Shown piece after piece: positions 3,627 to 23,500 of a DNA stretch of 32,000 nucleotides. The DNA is from Candidatus Saccharimonadota bacterium (GTDB lineage Archaea; Micrarchaeota; Micrarchaeia; Micrarchaeales; Micrarchaeaceae). The translations under genes and the position numbers were made by a program. Under the pieces are notes generated by a model that saw nothing but the letters and a program-made list of their open reading frames with translations, made no database searches and was not told the DNA's origin. The stretch lies in assembly GCA_963698035.1 (NCBI GenBank), contig OY969114.1:540001-572000 (forward strand), given 5' to 3'. The number at the start of each line of letters is the position of its first letter. Positions within the stretch are counted from its first letter, which is position 1.

Positions 3627-3733
3627 GCGGGGGTGGCAGAGCTTGGCCAAATGCGCAGGACTGAGGTGCGGAAATCCCGCTCGGAACTCCTGTGTCTTTA
3701 GTGACTGCGTGAGTTCAAATCTCACCCCCCGCA
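3627..3733 (+). tRNA. tRNA-Leu(GAG) with a 20-nt canonical-position (37/38) intron; no encoded CCA
   Basis: The acceptor stem is GCGGGGG(3627-3633)/CCCCCGC(3726-3732) with discriminator A3733. The anticodon stem is CAGGA(3656-3660)/TCCTG(3688-3692), with anticodon GAG at 3663-3665. There is a long variable arm (3693-3708) and a T-arm GTGAG-TTCAAAT-CTCAC (3709-3725). The intron (3667-3686) forms hBHBh': a central helix CTGA(3661-3664)/TCGG(3681-3684), 3-nt bulges at 3665-3667 and 3685-3687, and an inner helix GCGG/CCGC. Confidence 0.88.
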
Positions 3734-7030: not shown

Positions 7031-7077
7031 AGATTAAATAATGTATACATGGATGTATTTTTAGATGGTTGGTTTTG

Positions 7078-7917
7078 ATGGGGGATGCGCTTAAGGATGA
7101 TACCAAGCCGCAGGGCGTAAAGCAGCAATCTGCGATCGAATTTATGGTAACCTACGCATGGGCGATACTGCTCATGGCGGTCCTTTTATCTCTCCTCTAC
7201 TTCTTCGTCATAGCCCCCTATTCGATAAGCCCGTCGAGCTGCAGCTTCGTGACGCAGCTCACCTGCAAGGCTGTAATACTCGGCACCAACGCCATGACGC
7301 ACAACACCATCCTGACGCTGCTCGTCACCAACTCGCAGCAGTATCCGATTGAAGGGCCCGCGCTCTTCGCCAACATAAACGGCGTGAACACCAGCAACAC
7401 AATCTGCACACCGTACTTCGTTCCGGCGGGGGGGCAGTTCCTCTGCCAGCTGACCTTGCCGGTAAAGACGAACATAAACTCGTTCGAGTCTGGCTACACA
7501 TACCTCAACGCCTCTAACTGCGGCTTCTCGCCCACTTATTCGGCGTCCTCCTGCTCAGCGTCCAGGCCAGTCACGTACGCCGGAAGCTTCAGCGCCAAGG
7601 CGCAGCCAGTATTCTCGCTCGGAGGCAACGCGATAAGTGTCACCATTACGTCTAACTTGAGCGCGCAGTACCTCAATGAACCCGTAACGCTCAATGGAAC
7701 CGTACAGCTTTTGGGCACTTACCTGCAGGGTGCGACTGTCAACTTCACCGAAAATTCAGTGATTCCAGTAATAACGCCGAGATACGCTACTACGGACGGT
7801 GCAGGATTGGCATACAGCCAGATCATGAGCGCTCTCCCAACTACTGTTGTGGTCACCGCCTCCGTACTTGGAATCACCTCAAATGGAATCTCAATAACGT
7901 TCACCACGGCACCATAG
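7078..7917 (+). CDS. Class III signal-peptide (archaeal type IV pilin-like) protein with a C-terminal Ig-like beta-sandwich region
   Basis: A short charged leader is followed by 'QSAIEFMVTYAWAILLMAVLLSLLYFFV' (Q+1, E+5, hydrophobic helix). A Cys-containing globular domain is paralogous to those of 8054, 22353 and 23009. The C-terminal pattern '...VTLNGTVQLLG..GATVNFTE...TTDGAGLAY...VVVTASV' resembles Big-type domains. The ATG at 7078 is preferred to the TTG at 7069. Confidence 0.7.
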   Translation: MGDALKDDTKPQGVKQQSAIEFMVTYAWAILLMAVLLSLLYFFVIAPYSISPSSCSFVTQLTCKAVILGTNAMTHNTILTLLVTNSQQYPIEGPALFANINGVNTSNTICTPYFVPAGGQFLCQLTLPVKTNINSFESGYTYLNASNCGFSPTYSASSCSASRPVTYAGSFSAKAQPVFSLGGNAISVTITSNLSAQYLNEPVTLNGTVQLLGTYLQGATVNFTENSVIPVITPRYATTDGAGLAYSQIMSALPTTVVVTASVLGITSNGISITFTTAP

Positions 7918-8053: not shown

Positions 8054-9673
8054 ATGGCCAGATGGATCAGGGCGCAGAGCGCAATGGAGTATCTCACCAC
8101 GTACGGTTGGGCCATATTGATAATCGGCGTGGTTATCGCGCTTCTTGCAGCTATGGGGGTGTTCAGCCCCAACACCTATGTAAGCAATAGCTGCCTGCTG
8201 CCTGCCCAATTCCGCTGCATCACCGCAGTCCTCTCGGCCAACGGAATACTTTCCATCTCCATGCAGCAGAACACCGGCGATCCGATAAATGTTACCGCGC
8301 TCTACTGCAACAGCGGGCAGTCGATACCGACAAACACGTTAGCCATAACTAAGAAGTATCCTGGCATAGGCGGAAACGCCATCTATCTCGGCATAGGCGG
8401 AAACGCCACCTTCTCAGTACCATGCTTCCTCAGTTCGAACACGGAGTTCAGCGGCACGATAGGGACCATTTATCAAGGTTACCTGTTAATAAACTACACA
8501 GACATACCTACCTCTTTCATGTACACAACTGCCGGCTCTTTGGTGCTGAAGGTCGCGCAGGTGTCCACCACATCCATCATAGCCTCCCTCTCTTCCACTT
8601 CAATCTCCACCTCCATCTCCTCCACCACCCTTAAATCCTCTACAACCACTACAACTATACCTTATGTCCCTCTAACGTTGACAAATTCGCAAAGCACAGC
8701 CACATCTTCAAACTTCCAGCAGAGTGTAACCGTTACACCGAGTGCCTGCTCTGGATGTTACCCATACATAAACGCCAACTGGTCGAATGTCGAGTTCAGC
8801 ACCGGAGTCGGATCGAGTGGTCCGAGCGGCCCATTAGATGCATGGATAGAGAGCGGGGCAAGCAATACAGCCGCAAGCACACTCATCTGGGTCAATCTGA
8901 CCTCGAGTACAATAGCAGGAAGCGGAGGAACCCTCACAATATATATGAGCTTCATGCCGACTACTTCTCCTGTGACAAGTGGTTATACCGGCTACGCCCC
9001 ACAGTTCTTCTGTGCAAGCGGCTGTGCGCAAACCAGCTATGGTCAGTATGACAATGGGGAGAGTGTATTCACATACTACCAGCCTTTCGGCGGCCTTTCA
9101 ACCCTGCCTACAGGCTGGACACTGAGTGCAGGTGCAGACACGTTTTTGGCTAATTATACCACCATCAATGACATCGGCACCACGAGGGCAGGCTTATACT
9201 CGAATGTAGTATCAACAGAGCAAGTAAGCAACTTCCCAGTCAATATTGATGTATTCTCGAACCTCACACGGGGTGTGGTAGGCTCCGGAGCTGACGTGGG
9301 TGAATTTGGCTTGAGCTCAGGAACCATGACATCATCAACTTGTGGTATAGCTTATTATACGATTGTGGGAGTGACAAGTGCAAACAAGATAATAACTTGT
9401 ACTAAGAGCACGACCACAACCGGGAACACCGTAAGCTCATTGATACCCCAAGTATACTCTTTATATATACCGAGCAATTTAAGCTTCTCCGGGCTTTTCT
9501 CATACAGCAATCCAATAACAGGAACTATAACCGCTGTAGGTTCAGGAAATGATATCAAACAGTCAATAACAACATCATCCAACACTGTAAGTATGCCAAT
9601 ATATTGGATAAGGACAAGGGAACCTCCTCCAAACAATATCCAGCCCGCAGTCAGCTTCGGCTCTTTTGTCTAG
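8054..9673 (+). CDS. Class III signal-peptide protein: pilin-like N-domain + Ser/Thr-rich linker + large DUF2341/LamG(ConA)-like lectin-type C-terminal region (putative pilus-borne adhesin)
   Basis: The N-terminus is 'MARWIRA|QSAMEYLTTYGWAILIIGVVIALL' (R at -2, A at -1, Q at +1, E at +5). The linker is 'VSTTSIIASLSSTSISTSISSTTLKSSTTTTT'. The following region, 'IPYVPLTLTNSQSTATSSNFQQSVTV...NVEFS...LDAWIESG...STLIWVNL..IAGSGGTLTIYMSF...YDNGESVF', matches the DUF2341 pattern as I remember it. By my count there are at least 8 N-x-S/T sequons. Confidence 0.75.
   Translation: MARWIRAQSAMEYLTTYGWAILIIGVVIALLAAMGVFSPNTYVSNSCLLPAQFRCITAVLSANGILSISMQQNTGDPINVTALYCNSGQSIPTNTLAITKKYPGIGGNAIYLGIGGNATFSVPCFLSSNTEFSGTIGTIYQGYLLINYTDIPTSFMYTTAGSLVLKVAQVSTTSIIASLSSTSISTSISSTTLKSSTTTTTIPYVPLTLTNSQSTATSSNFQQSVTVTPSACSGCYPYINANWSNVEFSTGVGSSGPSGPLDAWIESGASNTAASTLIWVNLTSSTIAGSGGTLTIYMSFMPTTSPVTSGYTGYAPQFFCASGCAQTSYGQYDNGESVFTYYQPFGGLSTLPTGWTLSAGADTFLANYTTINDIGTTRAGLYSNVVSTEQVSNFPVNIDVFSNLTRGVVGSGADVGEFGLSSGTMTSSTCGIAYYTIVGVTSANKIITCTKSTTTTGNTVSSLIPQVYSLYIPSNLSFSGLFSYSNPITGTITAVGSGNDIKQSITTSSNTVSMPIYWIRTREPPPNNIQPAVSFGSFV
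8642..9118 (+). repeat. 477-bp block that appears 100% identical to 23599-24075 (direct orientation, offset 14957)
   Basis: I compared the two blocks base by base by eye. The alternative-frame ORFs 8755-9051, 8758-8955 and 8834-9031 have peptides identical to their counterparts at 23712-24008, 23715-23912 and 23791-23988. Confidence 0.9.
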
Positions 9674-9835: not shown

Positions 9836-10714
9836 TCATACTGGCACAAGAAGCAGCAGTATCACATTGCCAAGGAGAATAGAAGCCACTACGCCCACAA
9901 ATATCGGCGCAGCTAGCGGAATCGCATTCTTGTAGACCGGTATCTTCAATGTTATTCTCTTGCCCCTGAGCTGACCTATCAGCCTCTTTGTTGCGAGCCT
10001 GTCGAATCCCTTTACTTTGGCGCGCATCCTATCTATGGCGCTCCGCGTCATCAGGTTTATCGCTATCATGTCTCCTTCCTCAATCCCCTTATAGTTGAGG
10101 TATTTCACCATGGACATGGTAATCGGCTTTTCGAAGAGTACGACAGAAACGGAGCCGAGCATCATCAGTATAAGAAGAGCTATCCCCGCAACGCCCACGC
10201 CAACCTCAAAGATGAGGAAAGCGGCAAACACGAGATAGACTGCACCTACAGCAAGCGCCTTAAGCAGGTCCTTCCTCCCTATTTCCTTACCTATCCGCAT
10301 GCCCCTCACCTTCGCTCTTGGTATATAATACAAAGGAACCGCGACAAGTGCGGCGATGCCGCCGCCCATGAAGACCGAGACTATGAACGGTATGCCAAAT
10401 TGTGGTATGTTAAAGAGAAGCGGCACTGCCTGGAACGGCAGTATGAGCGACAGCGCAGCAAACTCGAAGACGTCACCCGCTCCCAGGTAACCAGCTCTGT
10501 ATACAAGGTATCCGAGGCCCAATACTACCGTCGCTATTACGACGCTGAAGGCTATCGCAGAGGCGTTTAGGTACAGTACCGTAAGAAGGAGTCCGTACGC
10601 CACACTTCCATATGCGAATAGCTCCGGAATATTCCTCTTGTTGAAGAGGTCGAAGAGCATATATACTAGCGCGATAGCCACGAGGCTTACAAGCCTGAGC
10701 ACCAGTAACTCCAT
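9836..10714 (-). CDS. A24-family aspartic prepilin/preflagellin peptidase (PibD/FlaK/EppA-like)
   Basis: The two catalytic-Asp motifs are at canonical spacing: D22 in 'YMLFDLFNKRNIP' and D81 in 'YLGAGDVFEF' (GxGD). It is a polytopic membrane protein with a soluble insert (residues ~200-250), as in FlaK. It lies adjacent to class III signal-peptide genes. Confidence 0.82.
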   Translation of the reverse strand: MELLVLRLVSLVAIALVYMLFDLFNKRNIPELFAYGSVAYGLLLTVLYLNASAIAFSVVIATVVLGLGYLVYRAGYLGAGDVFEFAALSLILPFQAVPLLFNIPQFGIPFIVSVFMGGGIAALVAVPLYYIPRAKVRGMRIGKEIGRKDLLKALAVGAVYLVFAAFLIFEVGVGVAGIALLILMMLGSVSVVLFEKPITMSMVKYLNYKGIEEGDMIAINLMTRSAIDRMRAKVKGFDRLATKRLIGQLRGKRITLKIPVYKNAIPLAAPIFVGVVASILLGNVILLLLVPV

Positions 10715-19005: not shown

Positions 19006-19631
19006 TGGTTCCGCCAAGCTATAGAAAATTGAAGAGGGGTCCACAGGTAATACTGCCAAAGGACATAGGGATTATAATCGCTTATACAGGAATTGGCAAG
19101 CGGAGCCTCTGCGTAGACGCCGGGACAGGCAGCGGGTGGCTAGCCGTCTCATTGGGCAGAGTCGCTGGGAGAGTCGTTAGCTACGACATAAGGGATGATT
19201 TCCTTAAGATTGCGCAGAGAAATATTGAAATCGAGCAGCTTGACAACGTAGAATTGAAGAAAGGTGATGTTACAAAAAAAATAGAAGAGAAAGAAGCAGA
19301 CCTGGTCACGCTCGACTTTGCGAACTCGGACAAGGCGCTGAGGAATGCAAGAAAGGCGCTCAAGGATGGCGGGCATGTTGTAGGTTACCTGCCGCACATG
19401 GAACAGGTGAAAAAGTTCGTATCGACACTGGAGAAGCTGAAGTTTTCCAACATATACACAATAGAGATTATAGTCAGGGACATGTTGGTGAGAAAGGAGG
19501 GAATGAGGCCCTCCACCAAGGGCGTATGGCACACAGGCTATCTTGTATTCGGGCAGAAGCAGGCCGAGCGAGCTACCGCTCAGGGGTCTAAAAAGTGTGA
19601 CGTATGCAGTGCATACGCCACGGGTGGATGA
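19002..19631 (+). CDS. trmI: SAM-dependent methyltransferase, TrmI/Gcd14-like tRNA (adenine-N1) methyltransferase
   Basis: It carries 'KRGPQVILPKDIGIIIAYTGI' followed by the SAM motif 'VDAGTGSGWLAVSL' and 'VVSYDIRDDF'. The ATG overlaps the topA stop (ATGA). Confidence 0.68.
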   Translation: MMVPPSYRKLKRGPQVILPKDIGIIIAYTGIGKRSLCVDAGTGSGWLAVSLGRVAGRVVSYDIRDDFLKIAQRNIEIEQLDNVELKKGDVTKKIEEKEADLVTLDFANSDKALRNARKALKDGGHVVGYLPHMEQVKKFVSTLEKLKFSNIYTIEIIVRDMLVRKEGMRPSTKGVWHTGYLVFGQKQAERATAQGSKKCDVCSAYATGG

Positions 19632-19744: not shown

Positions 19745-20071
19745 TTATCTGCCTCTGGCGCCTGCCTTGTACCTCTTTATGAGCTCTATGGCGTGGTCTA
19801 TCGCCTTCCTTACATCGCCGACAGTCCTCGCGCCGGTGCAGATTATTTTGCCATTCTTGAAAAGGAGGAGCGCCGCCTTCGGATCGTGAACCTTGAATAT
19901 CGCTCCTGGGAACTGCTCGGGCTCGTAGTCGACGTCCCTAGACAGCTTTGCCAAGCCGTAAAGATCAAGGTCTGTATTCAGCTCCGTATTGGCCACTATG
20001 TTGACTATAATGTAAGTGGGTTTCAGCACTACCGGCTTCTTGCCGTGTGACTTGGAGCTTTTTGCTGCCAT
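19745..20071 (-). CDS. Single-repeat TATA-box-binding-protein domain protein (half-size TBP, 108 aa)
   Basis: 'IVNIVANTELNTDLDLYGLAKL..DVDYEPEQFPGAIFKVHDPKAALLLFKNGKIICTGARTVGDVRKAI' matches one TBP repeat end to end. The ATG at 20071 is preferred to the TTG at 20089. Confidence 0.85.
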   Translation of the reverse strand: MAAKSSKSHGKKPVVLKPTYIIVNIVANTELNTDLDLYGLAKLSRDVDYEPEQFPGAIFKVHDPKAALLLFKNGKIICTGARTVGDVRKAIDHAIELIKRYKAGARGR

Positions 20072-20088
20072 ATAAAACACACCAATCA

Positions 20089-20111
20089 ATATATCTAAAA
20101 GTATATATATG
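20089..20111. promoter_or_regulatory. AT-rich, near-palindromic TATA region shared by the divergent half-TBP and rpl21e genes
   Basis: The sequence 'AATATATCTAAAAGTATATATAT' sits in the 75-nt divergent spacer. It lies 20-40 nt from the ATG at 20071 (minus strand) and 36-58 nt from the ATG at 20147 (plus strand). Confidence 0.45.
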
Positions 20112-20146
20112 TTCTACAACGAAACCTTTCTGCGAATTGTGATATT

Positions 20147-20449
20147 ATGACAAAGAGATCCCACGGGCTGTTTGTCGGCAGGACAAGGCACCTGGCCAGG
20201 CACCACAAACCCTCAAGGCTCAACACCGGCGCGATAATAAAGGAATTCTCCATCGGCGACATGGTATCCATAGTCCCGAAGGGCAACATGAGGAACATAC
20301 CTCACCCAAGATACAGGGGAAAGACCGGCACCATAATAGAGAAGAGAGGGCAGGCATACGTGGTAACTATAAAAATGATGAGCACCCATAGGACACTGAT
20401 AGTGCCGGCAATACATCTAGAGAAGGTCAAAAGCGCCTCTCCCTCTTAA
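20147..20449 (+). CDS. rpl21e: 50S ribosomal protein L21e (eL21)
   Basis: 100 aa. The sequence 'MTKRSHGLFVGRTRHLARHHKPSRL...FSIGDMVSIVPKG...PHPRYRGKTGTI' is typical of L21e. Confidence 0.93.
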   Translation: MTKRSHGLFVGRTRHLARHHKPSRLNTGAIIKEFSIGDMVSIVPKGNMRNIPHPRYRGKTGTIIEKRGQAYVVTIKMMSTHRTLIVPAIHLEKVKSASPS

Positions 20450-21030: not shown

Positions 21031-21361
21031 CTACTTCTGGTTTACTATAGAAAGTACCCTTTTTACTTCTTCATCGGTGAATGTTCTCCTTTCATTTGCC
21101 AGTATCTGCTTAAGCAGCATCTCGCCCTTTGGCATTATGTTGATTATGCTCATGACCGCCTGCCCAGAATAGTATCCCGAGAGCCTCCAGCGCCTTCTTG
21201 GTCTTCTGTTCCGTCACCTTTGCAACTACGAACTTCTTCGCATGCTCCATCGCGATCTGCTGCTCGTAGGTGAGCTCGCGCTCCTTCTTTCTGTCCTCAA
21301 GTATCTCGAGCACCTCGCTCAGGGAAGCATACCCATTCTGCTTCGACTCTTTGCCGATCAT
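21031..21361 (-). CDS. rpoF: DNA-directed RNA polymerase subunit F (Rpo4), reading frame interrupted by one extra nucleotide near 21165-21180
   Basis: The N-terminal part (21110-21361) reads 'MIGKESKQNGYASLSEVLEILEDRKK...YEQQIAMEHAKKF...KKALEAL' and is RpoF-like. The +1 frame continues as 'SGYYSGQAVMSIINIMPKGEMLLKQILANERRTFTDEEVKRVLSIVNQK*', ending at 21031. The total span of 331 nt equals 110 codons plus 1 nt. Confidence 0.75.
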
Positions 21362-23008: not shown

Positions 23009-23500
23009 TTGGCCAGATGGGTAAGGGCGCAGCACGCCATGGAATACCTTGTCACCTACGGATGGGCGATCCTCATCATCATGATAGTCCTGGTCGTGCT
23101 CCTCGTTCTTGGCTTATTCAGTTCCGGTACCTACGTAAGCGATACTTGCACGCTGCCAAATGGATTTGAGTGCCAGTCATCCCTTCTCGTTACAAACAAC
23201 GGTCTTCTTACATTCACTGTGGTGCAGTATACCGGCACTCCTATAGTGCTGACCGCAGTTGGCTGCAGCTCAAACCAGTCGACCCTCTACAACACTCCTC
23301 TCTCGCCTCCGGAAGGGGTTGAAGTAGGAGGCAGTGCAACCCTTACGACAAGTTGTTACCAGGGTAGCACAATATTCAAAGGCGGCATAGGCTCCGTCTA
23401 TCACGGTTATCTGGTAATAAACTACACGAACAACGTCACGGGCCTATCGCATCTTGCGGTAGGCGCAGTAGTCTTCAAGGTCAAGGCGGTATCACCATAA
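23009..23500 (+). CDS. Class III signal-peptide pilin-like domain; N-terminal portion of a frameshifted paralogue of 8054-9673
   Basis: The N-terminus is 'MARWVRA|QHAMEYLVTYGWAILIIMIVLVVL'. The start codon is TTG where the paralogue has ATG. The ORF ends ('KVKAVSP*') exactly where the paralogue enters its Ser/Thr linker. Confidence 0.7.
   Translation: MARWVRAQHAMEYLVTYGWAILIIMIVLVVLLVLGLFSSGTYVSDTCTLPNGFECQSSLLVTNNGLLTFTVVQYTGTPIVLTAVGCSSNQSTLYNTPLSPPEGVEVGGSATLTTSCYQGSTIFKGGIGSVYHGYLVINYTNNVTGLSHLAVGAVVFKVKAVSP

Follow-up and report, generated by a model that had tools for sequence, protein, structure and literature searches.

A single-lobe TATA-box binding protein occupies the tbp locus of Micrarchaeales and may form its DNA-binding saddle in trans

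Every transcription initiation in archaea and eukaryotes needs the TATA-box binding protein (TBP); the pseudo-symmetry of its two lobes is the textbook outcome of the duplication and fusion of a homodimeric ancestor. We know of no organism that runs on unfused TBP lobes. The question whether such organisms exist is raised by a stretch of 32,000 nucleotides from a Micrarchaeaceae genome (assembly GCA_963698035.1, contig OY969114.1, positions 540,001 to 572,000; hereafter the window, with positions counted from its first letter). An earlier note on this DNA, made from the letters alone, had reported an open reading frame (ORF) of 108 amino acids as a stand-alone TBP repeat, and the coordinates it gave are correct: the gene lies on the minus strand, with its start codon ATG at 20071 and its stop codon TAA at 19745-19747. 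We refer to this protein and its orthologs as family 1. From the analysis below we consider it probable that Micrarchaeales, including 'Ca. Micrarchaeum harzensis' A_DKE and ARMAN-1, live without a covalent TBP and assemble the saddle in trans, as a heterodimer and/or a symmetric homodimer, while neighboring lineages carry fused, near-symmetric versions at the same locus.

By sequence and by fold, the window protein is a TBP lobe. The Pfam profile PF00352 has a single match in the 108-residue protein, in which residues 20-101 align with positions 2-85 of the 85 in the profile (E = 1.6e-25), and both lobes of the TBP sequences in PDB entries 1mp9, 2z8u and 1pcz align onto one and the same region, with E-values down to 6e-35. 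All ten NCBIfam TBP models match as well, at 58-101 bits against cut-offs of 181-347 bits (about one third), because the protein is half a TBP. In an AlphaFold2 model of the monomer (predicted local distance difference test score, pLDDT, of 81), the elements H1-S2-S3-S4-S5-H2 were predicted with high confidence, and the confident residues 37-106 follow the TBP topology. The best 44 Foldseek matches in the PDB are all TBPs; about 70 residues superpose with root-mean-square deviations of 1.0-1.6 Å, and the TM-score normalised to the target is about 0.36, which corresponds to half a TBP. The single repeat and its hallmarks, as described in the earlier note, thus hold, and the profile search it had proposed identified a genuine TBP lobe. 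With a single Pfam stretch, the protein does not have the tandem two-lobe architecture in one polypeptide, nor is the lobe fused to a catalytic domain of the RNase HIII or DNA glycosylase type, as the 108 residues hold no other domain.

The residues on which a TBP depends are in place. When the window protein was mapped to yeast TBP (offset +45, taken from the 1ngm_A alignment row), N24, V26, F54, F71 and T79 corresponded to yeast N69, V71, F99, F116 and T124, and all five are invariant in an alignment of 35 family sequences. We take yeast N69, V71 and T124 to be the central minor-groove contacts, and F99 and F116 to be the intercalating phenylalanines of one lobe, as in TBP-DNA structures. 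The stirrup Y49-E50-P51-E52-Q53-F54 is likewise invariant in the family alignments, and the family core is nearly so (VLKPTY.V.NIVA...LDLYGLAK.S.D.DYEPEQFPGAIFKVH.PKAALLLFKNGKIICTGART). An acidic stirrup is presumably the TFIIB/TFB-binding form known from the C-terminal lobe of canonical TBPs (yeast E186 and E188). By homology, the family-1 stirrup would be of this TFB-binding kind. That family 1 binds and bends TATA boxes and recruits TFB and RNA polymerase is suggested indirectly by the canonical promoters that persist in these organisms (see below).

The protein is not the remainder of a broken two-lobe gene. Searches of the 32-kb window by tblastn with 21 two-lobe TBPs matched positions 19769-20023 alone, and no further TBP domain came up when a six-frame hidden Markov model (HMM) scan was run on the window and on 10 kb to either side of 99 other TBP loci (1.3 Mb in total). 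The earlier note was therefore right that no other TBP-like frame lies nearby and that there is no room for a second repeat, with a spacer of 75 nt between the ATG of the gene (20071) and that of rpl21e (20147) and a gap of 113 nt between its 3' end and the convergent trmI (GCD14 family, end at 19631), beyond which a topoisomerase I gene lies. A degraded second repeat 3' of the stop codon was considered and rejected, since the tblastn extensions past the stop are low-identity noise and trmI is so close.

An identical protein is encoded in an independent Logan assembly and was also placed on a contig of 776,853 bp, and the length is the same in independent NCBI, ENA, JGI and Logan assemblies. 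A protein search gave 575 relatives, of which we inspected the best 120; about 98 of these have 102-134 amino acids and come from Micrarchaeota metagenome-assembled genomes (MAGs), on contigs of up to 484 kb. A genome scan with one genome per GTDB species returned 310 relatives. The best 80 of these were inspected and are all from Micrarchaeota, each with a frame encoding a single lobe of about 105-115 amino acids; they include the closed A_DKE chromosome ('Ca. Micrarchaeum', NZ_CP060530.1) and the 1.05-Mb contig CAVWJC010000001.1. The survey of relatives for TBP-repeat proteins of about 100 residues, suggested in the earlier note, thus revealed a whole group of them. The ratio of nonsynonymous to synonymous substitution rates (dN/dS) against the closest relatives is 0.024-0.03, with synonymous sites saturated, and the gene is under strong purifying selection. 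Since independent assemblies agree, 80 species carry the gene and dN/dS is low, we exclude truncation and misassembly, either of which would have overturned the earlier note. Most family-1 proteins are labeled 'hypothetical' at NCBI, and some of the MAGs that carry them are mislabeled as Marsarchaeota or Acidoferrum. Among the best 80 genomes, the MAG CAYNNI01 is the only one with two family-1 loci (L076 and L092); the two differ in lineage type and one of them is at the end of a contig, and the bin is probably mixed rather than the gene truly duplicated.

The position of the gene tells what it is. In 85 of 93 TBP loci, rpl21e is the divergent neighbor, usually followed by rpoF and a DUF655 gene and often by ksgA. 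The five nearest two-lobe TBPs that could be placed (P0009, P0013, P0396, P0397 and P0405, the last from Anstonellales) all occupy the same position divergent from rpl21e, and loci with rpl21e beside two-lobe TBPs are L006-8 and L096-100. Because family 1 shares this position with the five sister TBPs, it is the lineage's own tbp gene, a positional ortholog rather than an additional copy. Two lobes are present in the other archaeal TBPs that our searches recovered, among them the ones encoded at the tbp locus of sister DPANN lineages, so that the single-lobe state is a secondary reduction and not a relic. This speaks against the resemblance to the postulated ancestral state that the earlier note had seen in the protein. 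Its other reading, a paralog working beside a full-length TBP, found no support, as the two-lobe relatives that were checked sit, in other lineages, at the gene's own position and the published TBP gene counts of Micrarchaeota genomes are never above two.

The promoters in front of these genes are classical. A box of the TATTTAWA type lies 36-45 nt before the ATG in 62 of 79 distinct orthologous loci (mean of 5.3 and maximum of 14 after shuffling), and the window gene itself has a TATTTATA promoter. A feature like the B recognition element (BRE) is the A at -4/-3 in 52-53 of 60 aligned promoters, and a GGTG-like ribosome-binding element is present in 49 of the 79 distinct upstream regions. As asymmetric BRE/TATA promoters have been kept, TBP activity is needed in these organisms. 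TFB-BRE contacts set the polarity of archaeal promoters, according to the place in PMC7289017 where Bell et al. 1999 is cited for it. Such contacts could fix polarity even with a symmetric or near-symmetric saddle.

The two-lobe TBPs nearest to family 1 are themselves unusual. Identity between the two lobes of one protein is 65-88%, and 92% over the trimmed core of P0006; inter-lobe identity is roughly 30-45% in non-homogenised two-lobe TBPs and has a median of 51% in the whole set. High lobe identity was seen in P0006, P0403, P0316, P0396 (L098) and P0405 (L096), with an identical run of about 44 residues in L098. The proportion of synonymous differences (pS) between lobes is 0.45-0.5, below saturation between species. 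These values point to homogenisation of the lobes by gene conversion or concerted evolution, or to a recent re-duplication. In P0006 the N-terminal tail KKVPQPKF recurs in the inter-lobe linker as KKIPQPKF, as would be expected from tandem duplication of a complete single-lobe gene. The model of P0006 is a confident canonical saddle (pLDDT 92.6) with strand S1 formed in both lobes; S1 is unformed in the model of the isolated window lobe, which hints that this strand needs the partner lobe. Judged from these sequences, near-perfect lobe symmetry appears to be tolerated in this clade and the lobes to be interchangeable.

Single lobes also occur outside the main family. P0246 (L012) has its nearest relatives in the lobes of P0410, P0407 and P0006 (75-81% identity), and a further rpl21e-linked type, 1b, has a single lobe in L166 and L177-L180 and two lobes in L170 and L172. 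Single-lobe forms thus seem to have arisen more than once, and the number of lobes seems to have changed several times. We also noted three-lobe TBPs of 272-283 amino acids with a duplicated N-type lobe (P0287-P0290 and P0121), all on short contigs, which are either real or assembly artefacts.

If the tbp gene of Micrarchaeales encodes half a saddle, the other half has to come from somewhere, and published gene counts give a lead. For the closed Mia14 genome, CP019964, Golyshina et al. 2017 give two proteins of arCOG01764 (TBP), and for most other DPANN genomes one (PMC5498576). In the supplement of Chen et al. 2018, the TBP ortholog group K03120 counts two genes in 20 of 29 Micrarchaeota, including the 100%-complete ARMAN-2, one in eight, none in one and three in no genome, and a single gene in 14 of 14 Parvarchaeota (PMC5864196). 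The same paper describes acetyl-CoA synthetase as encoded by two genes in Micrarchaeota and by a single fused one in Parvarchaeota, and its supplement shows a matching pattern of two versus one between these groups in the K09181 row, which we infer to be this enzyme. Subtypes of family 1 were considered as the two copies and rejected, because the P0042-type and other subtypes are rpl21e-linked orthologs, one per genome.

A second single-lobe family emerged from a metagenome scan seeded with two odd single-lobe proteins, P0243 and P0204. This family 2 accounts for 64 of the 80 metagenome loci. Its loci lie in L093, L094, L101-L161 and L181-L190, examples are P0243 and P0504, and its proteins, of about 100-140 amino acids, are 45-52% identical to the window protein. 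The core reads IQNIVVSADLHA.IDLYALSK.VK.VDYEPEQFPGAIFRI.EPKAVIILFKNGK.ICTG, and the full set of DNA-contact residues is kept; the two families differ consistently at helix and surface positions. Family 2 adjoins rpl21e in no locus examined. In acid-mine members, the gene is divergent from a thermosome gene and lies upstream of a 210-residue ORF, an F420-ligase-like gene and a GT1 gene. Ten of ten family-2 proteins predicted from the loci are present in the protein collection, where JGI names them TFIID TBP, the name of K03120. NCBI labels assign them to 'Candidatus Micrarchaeia' and to the same mislabeled 'Marsarchaeota' MAG series that carries family 1. Further, the tetranucleotide composition of family-2 contigs correlates with that of particular family-1 contigs at r = 0.93-0.97, compared with a median of 0.885 between halves of one contig and 0.75 between different family-1 genomes. 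No sequence overlap joins contigs of the two families; only their MCM genes share 66-68% nucleotide identity, from which we conclude that the family-2 contigs come from related organisms. MCM lies immediately 3' of family 1 in some lineages (L009, L044 and L080) and about 9 kb 3' of acid-mine family 2 (L181-L187). In 18 of 45 distinct family-2 genes, the start region reads GGTG[AG]T-NNN-ACG in frame (e.g., L101 at about 9920-9935, L112, L107 and L094), where NNN is often a stop codon and the ACG is invariant; other members have ATG in its place. Many family-2 genes may thus use ACG as a conserved, non-canonical start codon. Because counts never exceed two, family 2 occurs in the same group and the tetranucleotide signatures match, the most economical picture is that each genome has one gene of each family and lacks a two-lobe TBP.

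One lobe is half a DNA-binding saddle, and therefore two chains must come together in trans to make the active factor. In the arrangement that we propose, each subunit would supply five beta-strands, the phenylalanine pair F54/F71, the contacts N24/V26/T79 and the acidic stirrup E50-P-E52-Q. The likeliest partner of family 1 would be the separately encoded family 2, giving a 'split TBP' equivalent to the usual pseudo-symmetric protein. A homodimer of family 1 is structurally as feasible and may form too. On balance we lean towards a saddle built in trans, for which a heterodimer of families 1 and 2 is the likeliest form and the homodimer a possible one. The data above show that the protein has a single lobe and is conserved, orthologous to tbp, equipped with the functional residues and preceded by canonical promoters, and that family 2 exists; from them we infer that the lobes dimerise, which partner family 1 takes and that a covalent two-lobe TBP is missing. 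Several observations weigh against this proposal. No examined contig or genome holds both families. A covalent two-lobe TBP was found in none of the best 80 genome-scan loci but may be encoded elsewhere in the genomes. The column order of the K03120 counts was taken from Tables S4/S5 and not from the header of the K03120 table itself. An ACG start would imply low expression of family 2, a poor fit to a 1:1 partner. Finally, profiles of N- and C-terminal lobes score family 1 and family 2 at +4.3 versus +1.8 bits and at -3.9 versus -7.8 bits, so that family 1 looks only 2.5-4 bits more N-like and both are intermediate compared with held-out N and C lobes, by which a simple fission into N and C halves is not demonstrated. 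The two families may have arisen when a homogenised TBP split, or when a gene that already had a single lobe was duplicated.

The earlier note's first reading, that a family-1 homodimer is the sole TBP, would give a two-fold symmetric saddle for all promoters, with family 2 absent from the genome or otherwise employed. It is conceivable but has lost weight, a heterodimer being no less likely. In its favor, the gene is the positional ortholog of tbp, its DNA- and TFB-contact residues are all invariant, sister TBPs with lobes up to 88-92% identical show that near-perfect symmetry is tolerated, eight of the 29 Micrarchaeota MAGs count a single TBP, and other lineages have the single-lobe, rpl21e-linked type 1b and the independent half P0246. 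The typical count is nonetheless two TBP-family genes, also in the complete ARMAN-2 and the closed Mia14 genomes, and Micrarchaeia MAGs have a conserved second single-lobe family, which leaves the sole homodimer rather unlikely in our view. Doubtful, too, is a division of labor in which families 1 and 2 form two alternative homodimers for separate promoter sets or conditions, in the manner of the multiple TBPs of haloarchaea. Full sets of DNA-contact residues in both families and their consistent differences at helices and surface would fit this, as would the unequal expression suggested by the probable ACG start of many family-2 genes, but no feature separates classes of promoters, and a 1:1 count per genome across the order is the pattern of a two-subunit factor.

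Three further explanations were considered. An accessory single-lobe paralog beside a canonical two-lobe TBP elsewhere has precedents in the single-domain TBPs of Halobacteria and Thermococcales, which coexist with full TBPs (PMC3597702), and our evidence covers TBP loci rather than whole genomes. We hold it to be improbable all the same, given that the gene sits in the tbp locus itself and is extremely conserved (dN/dS 0.02-0.03), that none of three protein searches (best 120 matches each) gave a two-lobe match traceable to a half-TBP genome, and that counts never rise above two though the group has two single-lobe families. Still harder to defend is a nucleic-acid-binding domain outside transcription, like the N-terminal domain of RNase HIII, even if the TBP fold is so used elsewhere (PMC3597702): the window protein is 55-60% identical to genuine TBP lobes, its phenylalanine pair and TFB stirrup are invariant, and no catalytic domain is fused or adjacent to it. 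An assembly or annotation artefact or a decaying pseudogene might be suspected in a window with at least one frameshifted gene (rpoF), but is refuted by the equal length in independent assemblies and by strong purifying selection across 80 species.

The features of the locus are given in the table.

Features of the single-lobe TBP locus (positions within the window)
Feature	Position	Strand	Evidence and remarks
Coding sequence of the single-lobe TBP (family 1)	19745..20071	-	108 amino acids, stop codon included; ORF list and sequence, Pfam, PDB TBPs, orthologs, dN/dS
TBP lobe proper, residues 20-101, S1-H1-S2-S3-S4-S5-H2	19769..20014	-	Pfam envelope, AlphaFold2, Foldseek
N-terminal tail, residues 1-19	20015..20071	-	Family alignments, charge count
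Basic C-terminal tail YKAGARGR (residues 101-108, net charge +3) and stop codon	19745..19768	-	Sequence, alignments, charge count
GGTG, Shine-Dalgarno-like	20080..20083	-	9-12 nt ahead of the start codon
Promoter core with a TATATATA box (20102-20109) and, before it, a BRE-like AA (20112-20113)	20102..20113	-	31-42 nt before the ATG
rpl21e, divergent neighbor, positional marker of the tbp ortholog	20147..20449	+	Pfam Ribosomal_L21e

The ATG at 20071 was preferred over a TTG at 20089 as start codon because of the N-termini of the orthologs (MA... or MP...) and the GGTG upstream of it. The N-terminal tail carries a net charge of +4 over residues 1-16 and varies in sequence among orthologs, except for the VLKPTY motif directly before S1. 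Basic tails were rejected as a distinctive trait, as the median isoelectric point is 9.5 in the family and 9.4 in related two-lobe DPANN TBPs.

Elsewhere in the window, rpoF/Rpo4 (21031-21361, minus strand) has a frameshift near 21165-21180; one frame corresponds to residues 1-64 of the ortholog in L002 and the second continues ...MSIINIMPKGEMLLKQILANERRTFTDEEVKRVLSIVNQK, by sequencing error or real disruption. A 107-nt tRNA at 3627-3733 (plus strand) was detected by Rfam (44.9 bits) and missed by ARAGORN. It probably contains an intron, which would fit the unusual broad-specificity splicing endonuclease described for ARMAN-2. Three ORFs on the plus strand (7069-7917, 8054-9673 and 23009-23500) share near-identical pilin-like (class III) signal peptides, MARW[IV]RAQ[SH]AMEYL[TV]TYGWAILII, and those of the three that were tested gave no Pfam match.

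Were our proposal true, the hypothesis on the ancestral state of TBP would become directly testable with natural proteins, beyond engineered halves, by their dimerisation, DNA bending, TFB recruitment and orientation. The clade would show, in living lineages, the series from monomer to tandem that has long been postulated as the origin of TBP, and would offer a natural test of whether promoter polarity rests on TFB-BRE contacts alone. TBP architecture would be evolutionarily labile, with single, near-identical fused and even three-lobe forms in one clade, and TBP-based annotation and completeness markers would need adjusting. The cultivated member A_DKE makes experiments feasible.

Single-lobe archaeal TBPs have been mentioned in general terms (PMC3597702, PMC7221094), and comparative surveys only score TBP as present in DPANN genomes (PMC8407392). 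Full-text literature searches found no prior description of a half-TBP in Micrarchaeota, of its orthology with tbp, of family 2 or of the homogenised lobes in sister lineages. Known single-domain proteins offer the obvious comparison. The monopartite TBP-domain proteins of Thermococcales, listed in Table 3 of Brindefalk et al. 2013 (PMC3597702), are divergent, cluster separately and occur in cells that also have a normal TBP. Like family 1, they consist of one TBP-fold domain in about 90-100 amino acids and are not misannotated TBPs; they are only distantly TBP-like, however, whereas family 1 is close to true lobes and keeps every DNA-contact residue. TbpA of Halobacterium is, like family 1, a stand-alone protein; in the summary by Brindefalk et al. 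2013 (PMC3597702), its one TBP domain groups with true TBP lobes. In contrast to family 1, which is found in at least 80 species at the tbp locus under strong purifying selection, TbpA is non-essential, lineage-restricted and encoded beside several full-length TBPs. No such full-length companion has been demonstrated for family 1.

Canonical archaeal TBPs (Sulfolobus acidocaldarius 1MP9, Methanocaldococcus jannaschii 2Z8U, Pyrococcus woesei 1PCZ/1AIS) share with family 1 the fold of the lobe, at 41-44% identity for the solved lobes as compared with 55-64% for DPANN lobes, the phenylalanine pair, the central Asn/Val/Thr and the YEPEQFPG stirrup. Family 1 likewise lies at the tbp position of its sister lineages, behind a BRE/TATA promoter, but has one lobe and short basic tails where the canonical proteins have two lobes per polypeptide and an acidic C-terminal tail. 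Family 2 (P0243, P0504) has in common with family 1 the single lobe and the motifs NIV, EPEQFPG, LFKNGK and CTG, and is set apart by its own signature (NIVVSADLHA, AVIILF, KYVI) and by not being linked to rpl21e. The nearest relatives of family 1 are the two-lobe TBPs of sister Micrarchaeia and Iainarchaeia (P0006, P0396, P0405), with 55-64% identity per lobe and the same rpl21e-linked locus. They are covalent tandems, and they look like near-symmetric, fused versions of family 1.

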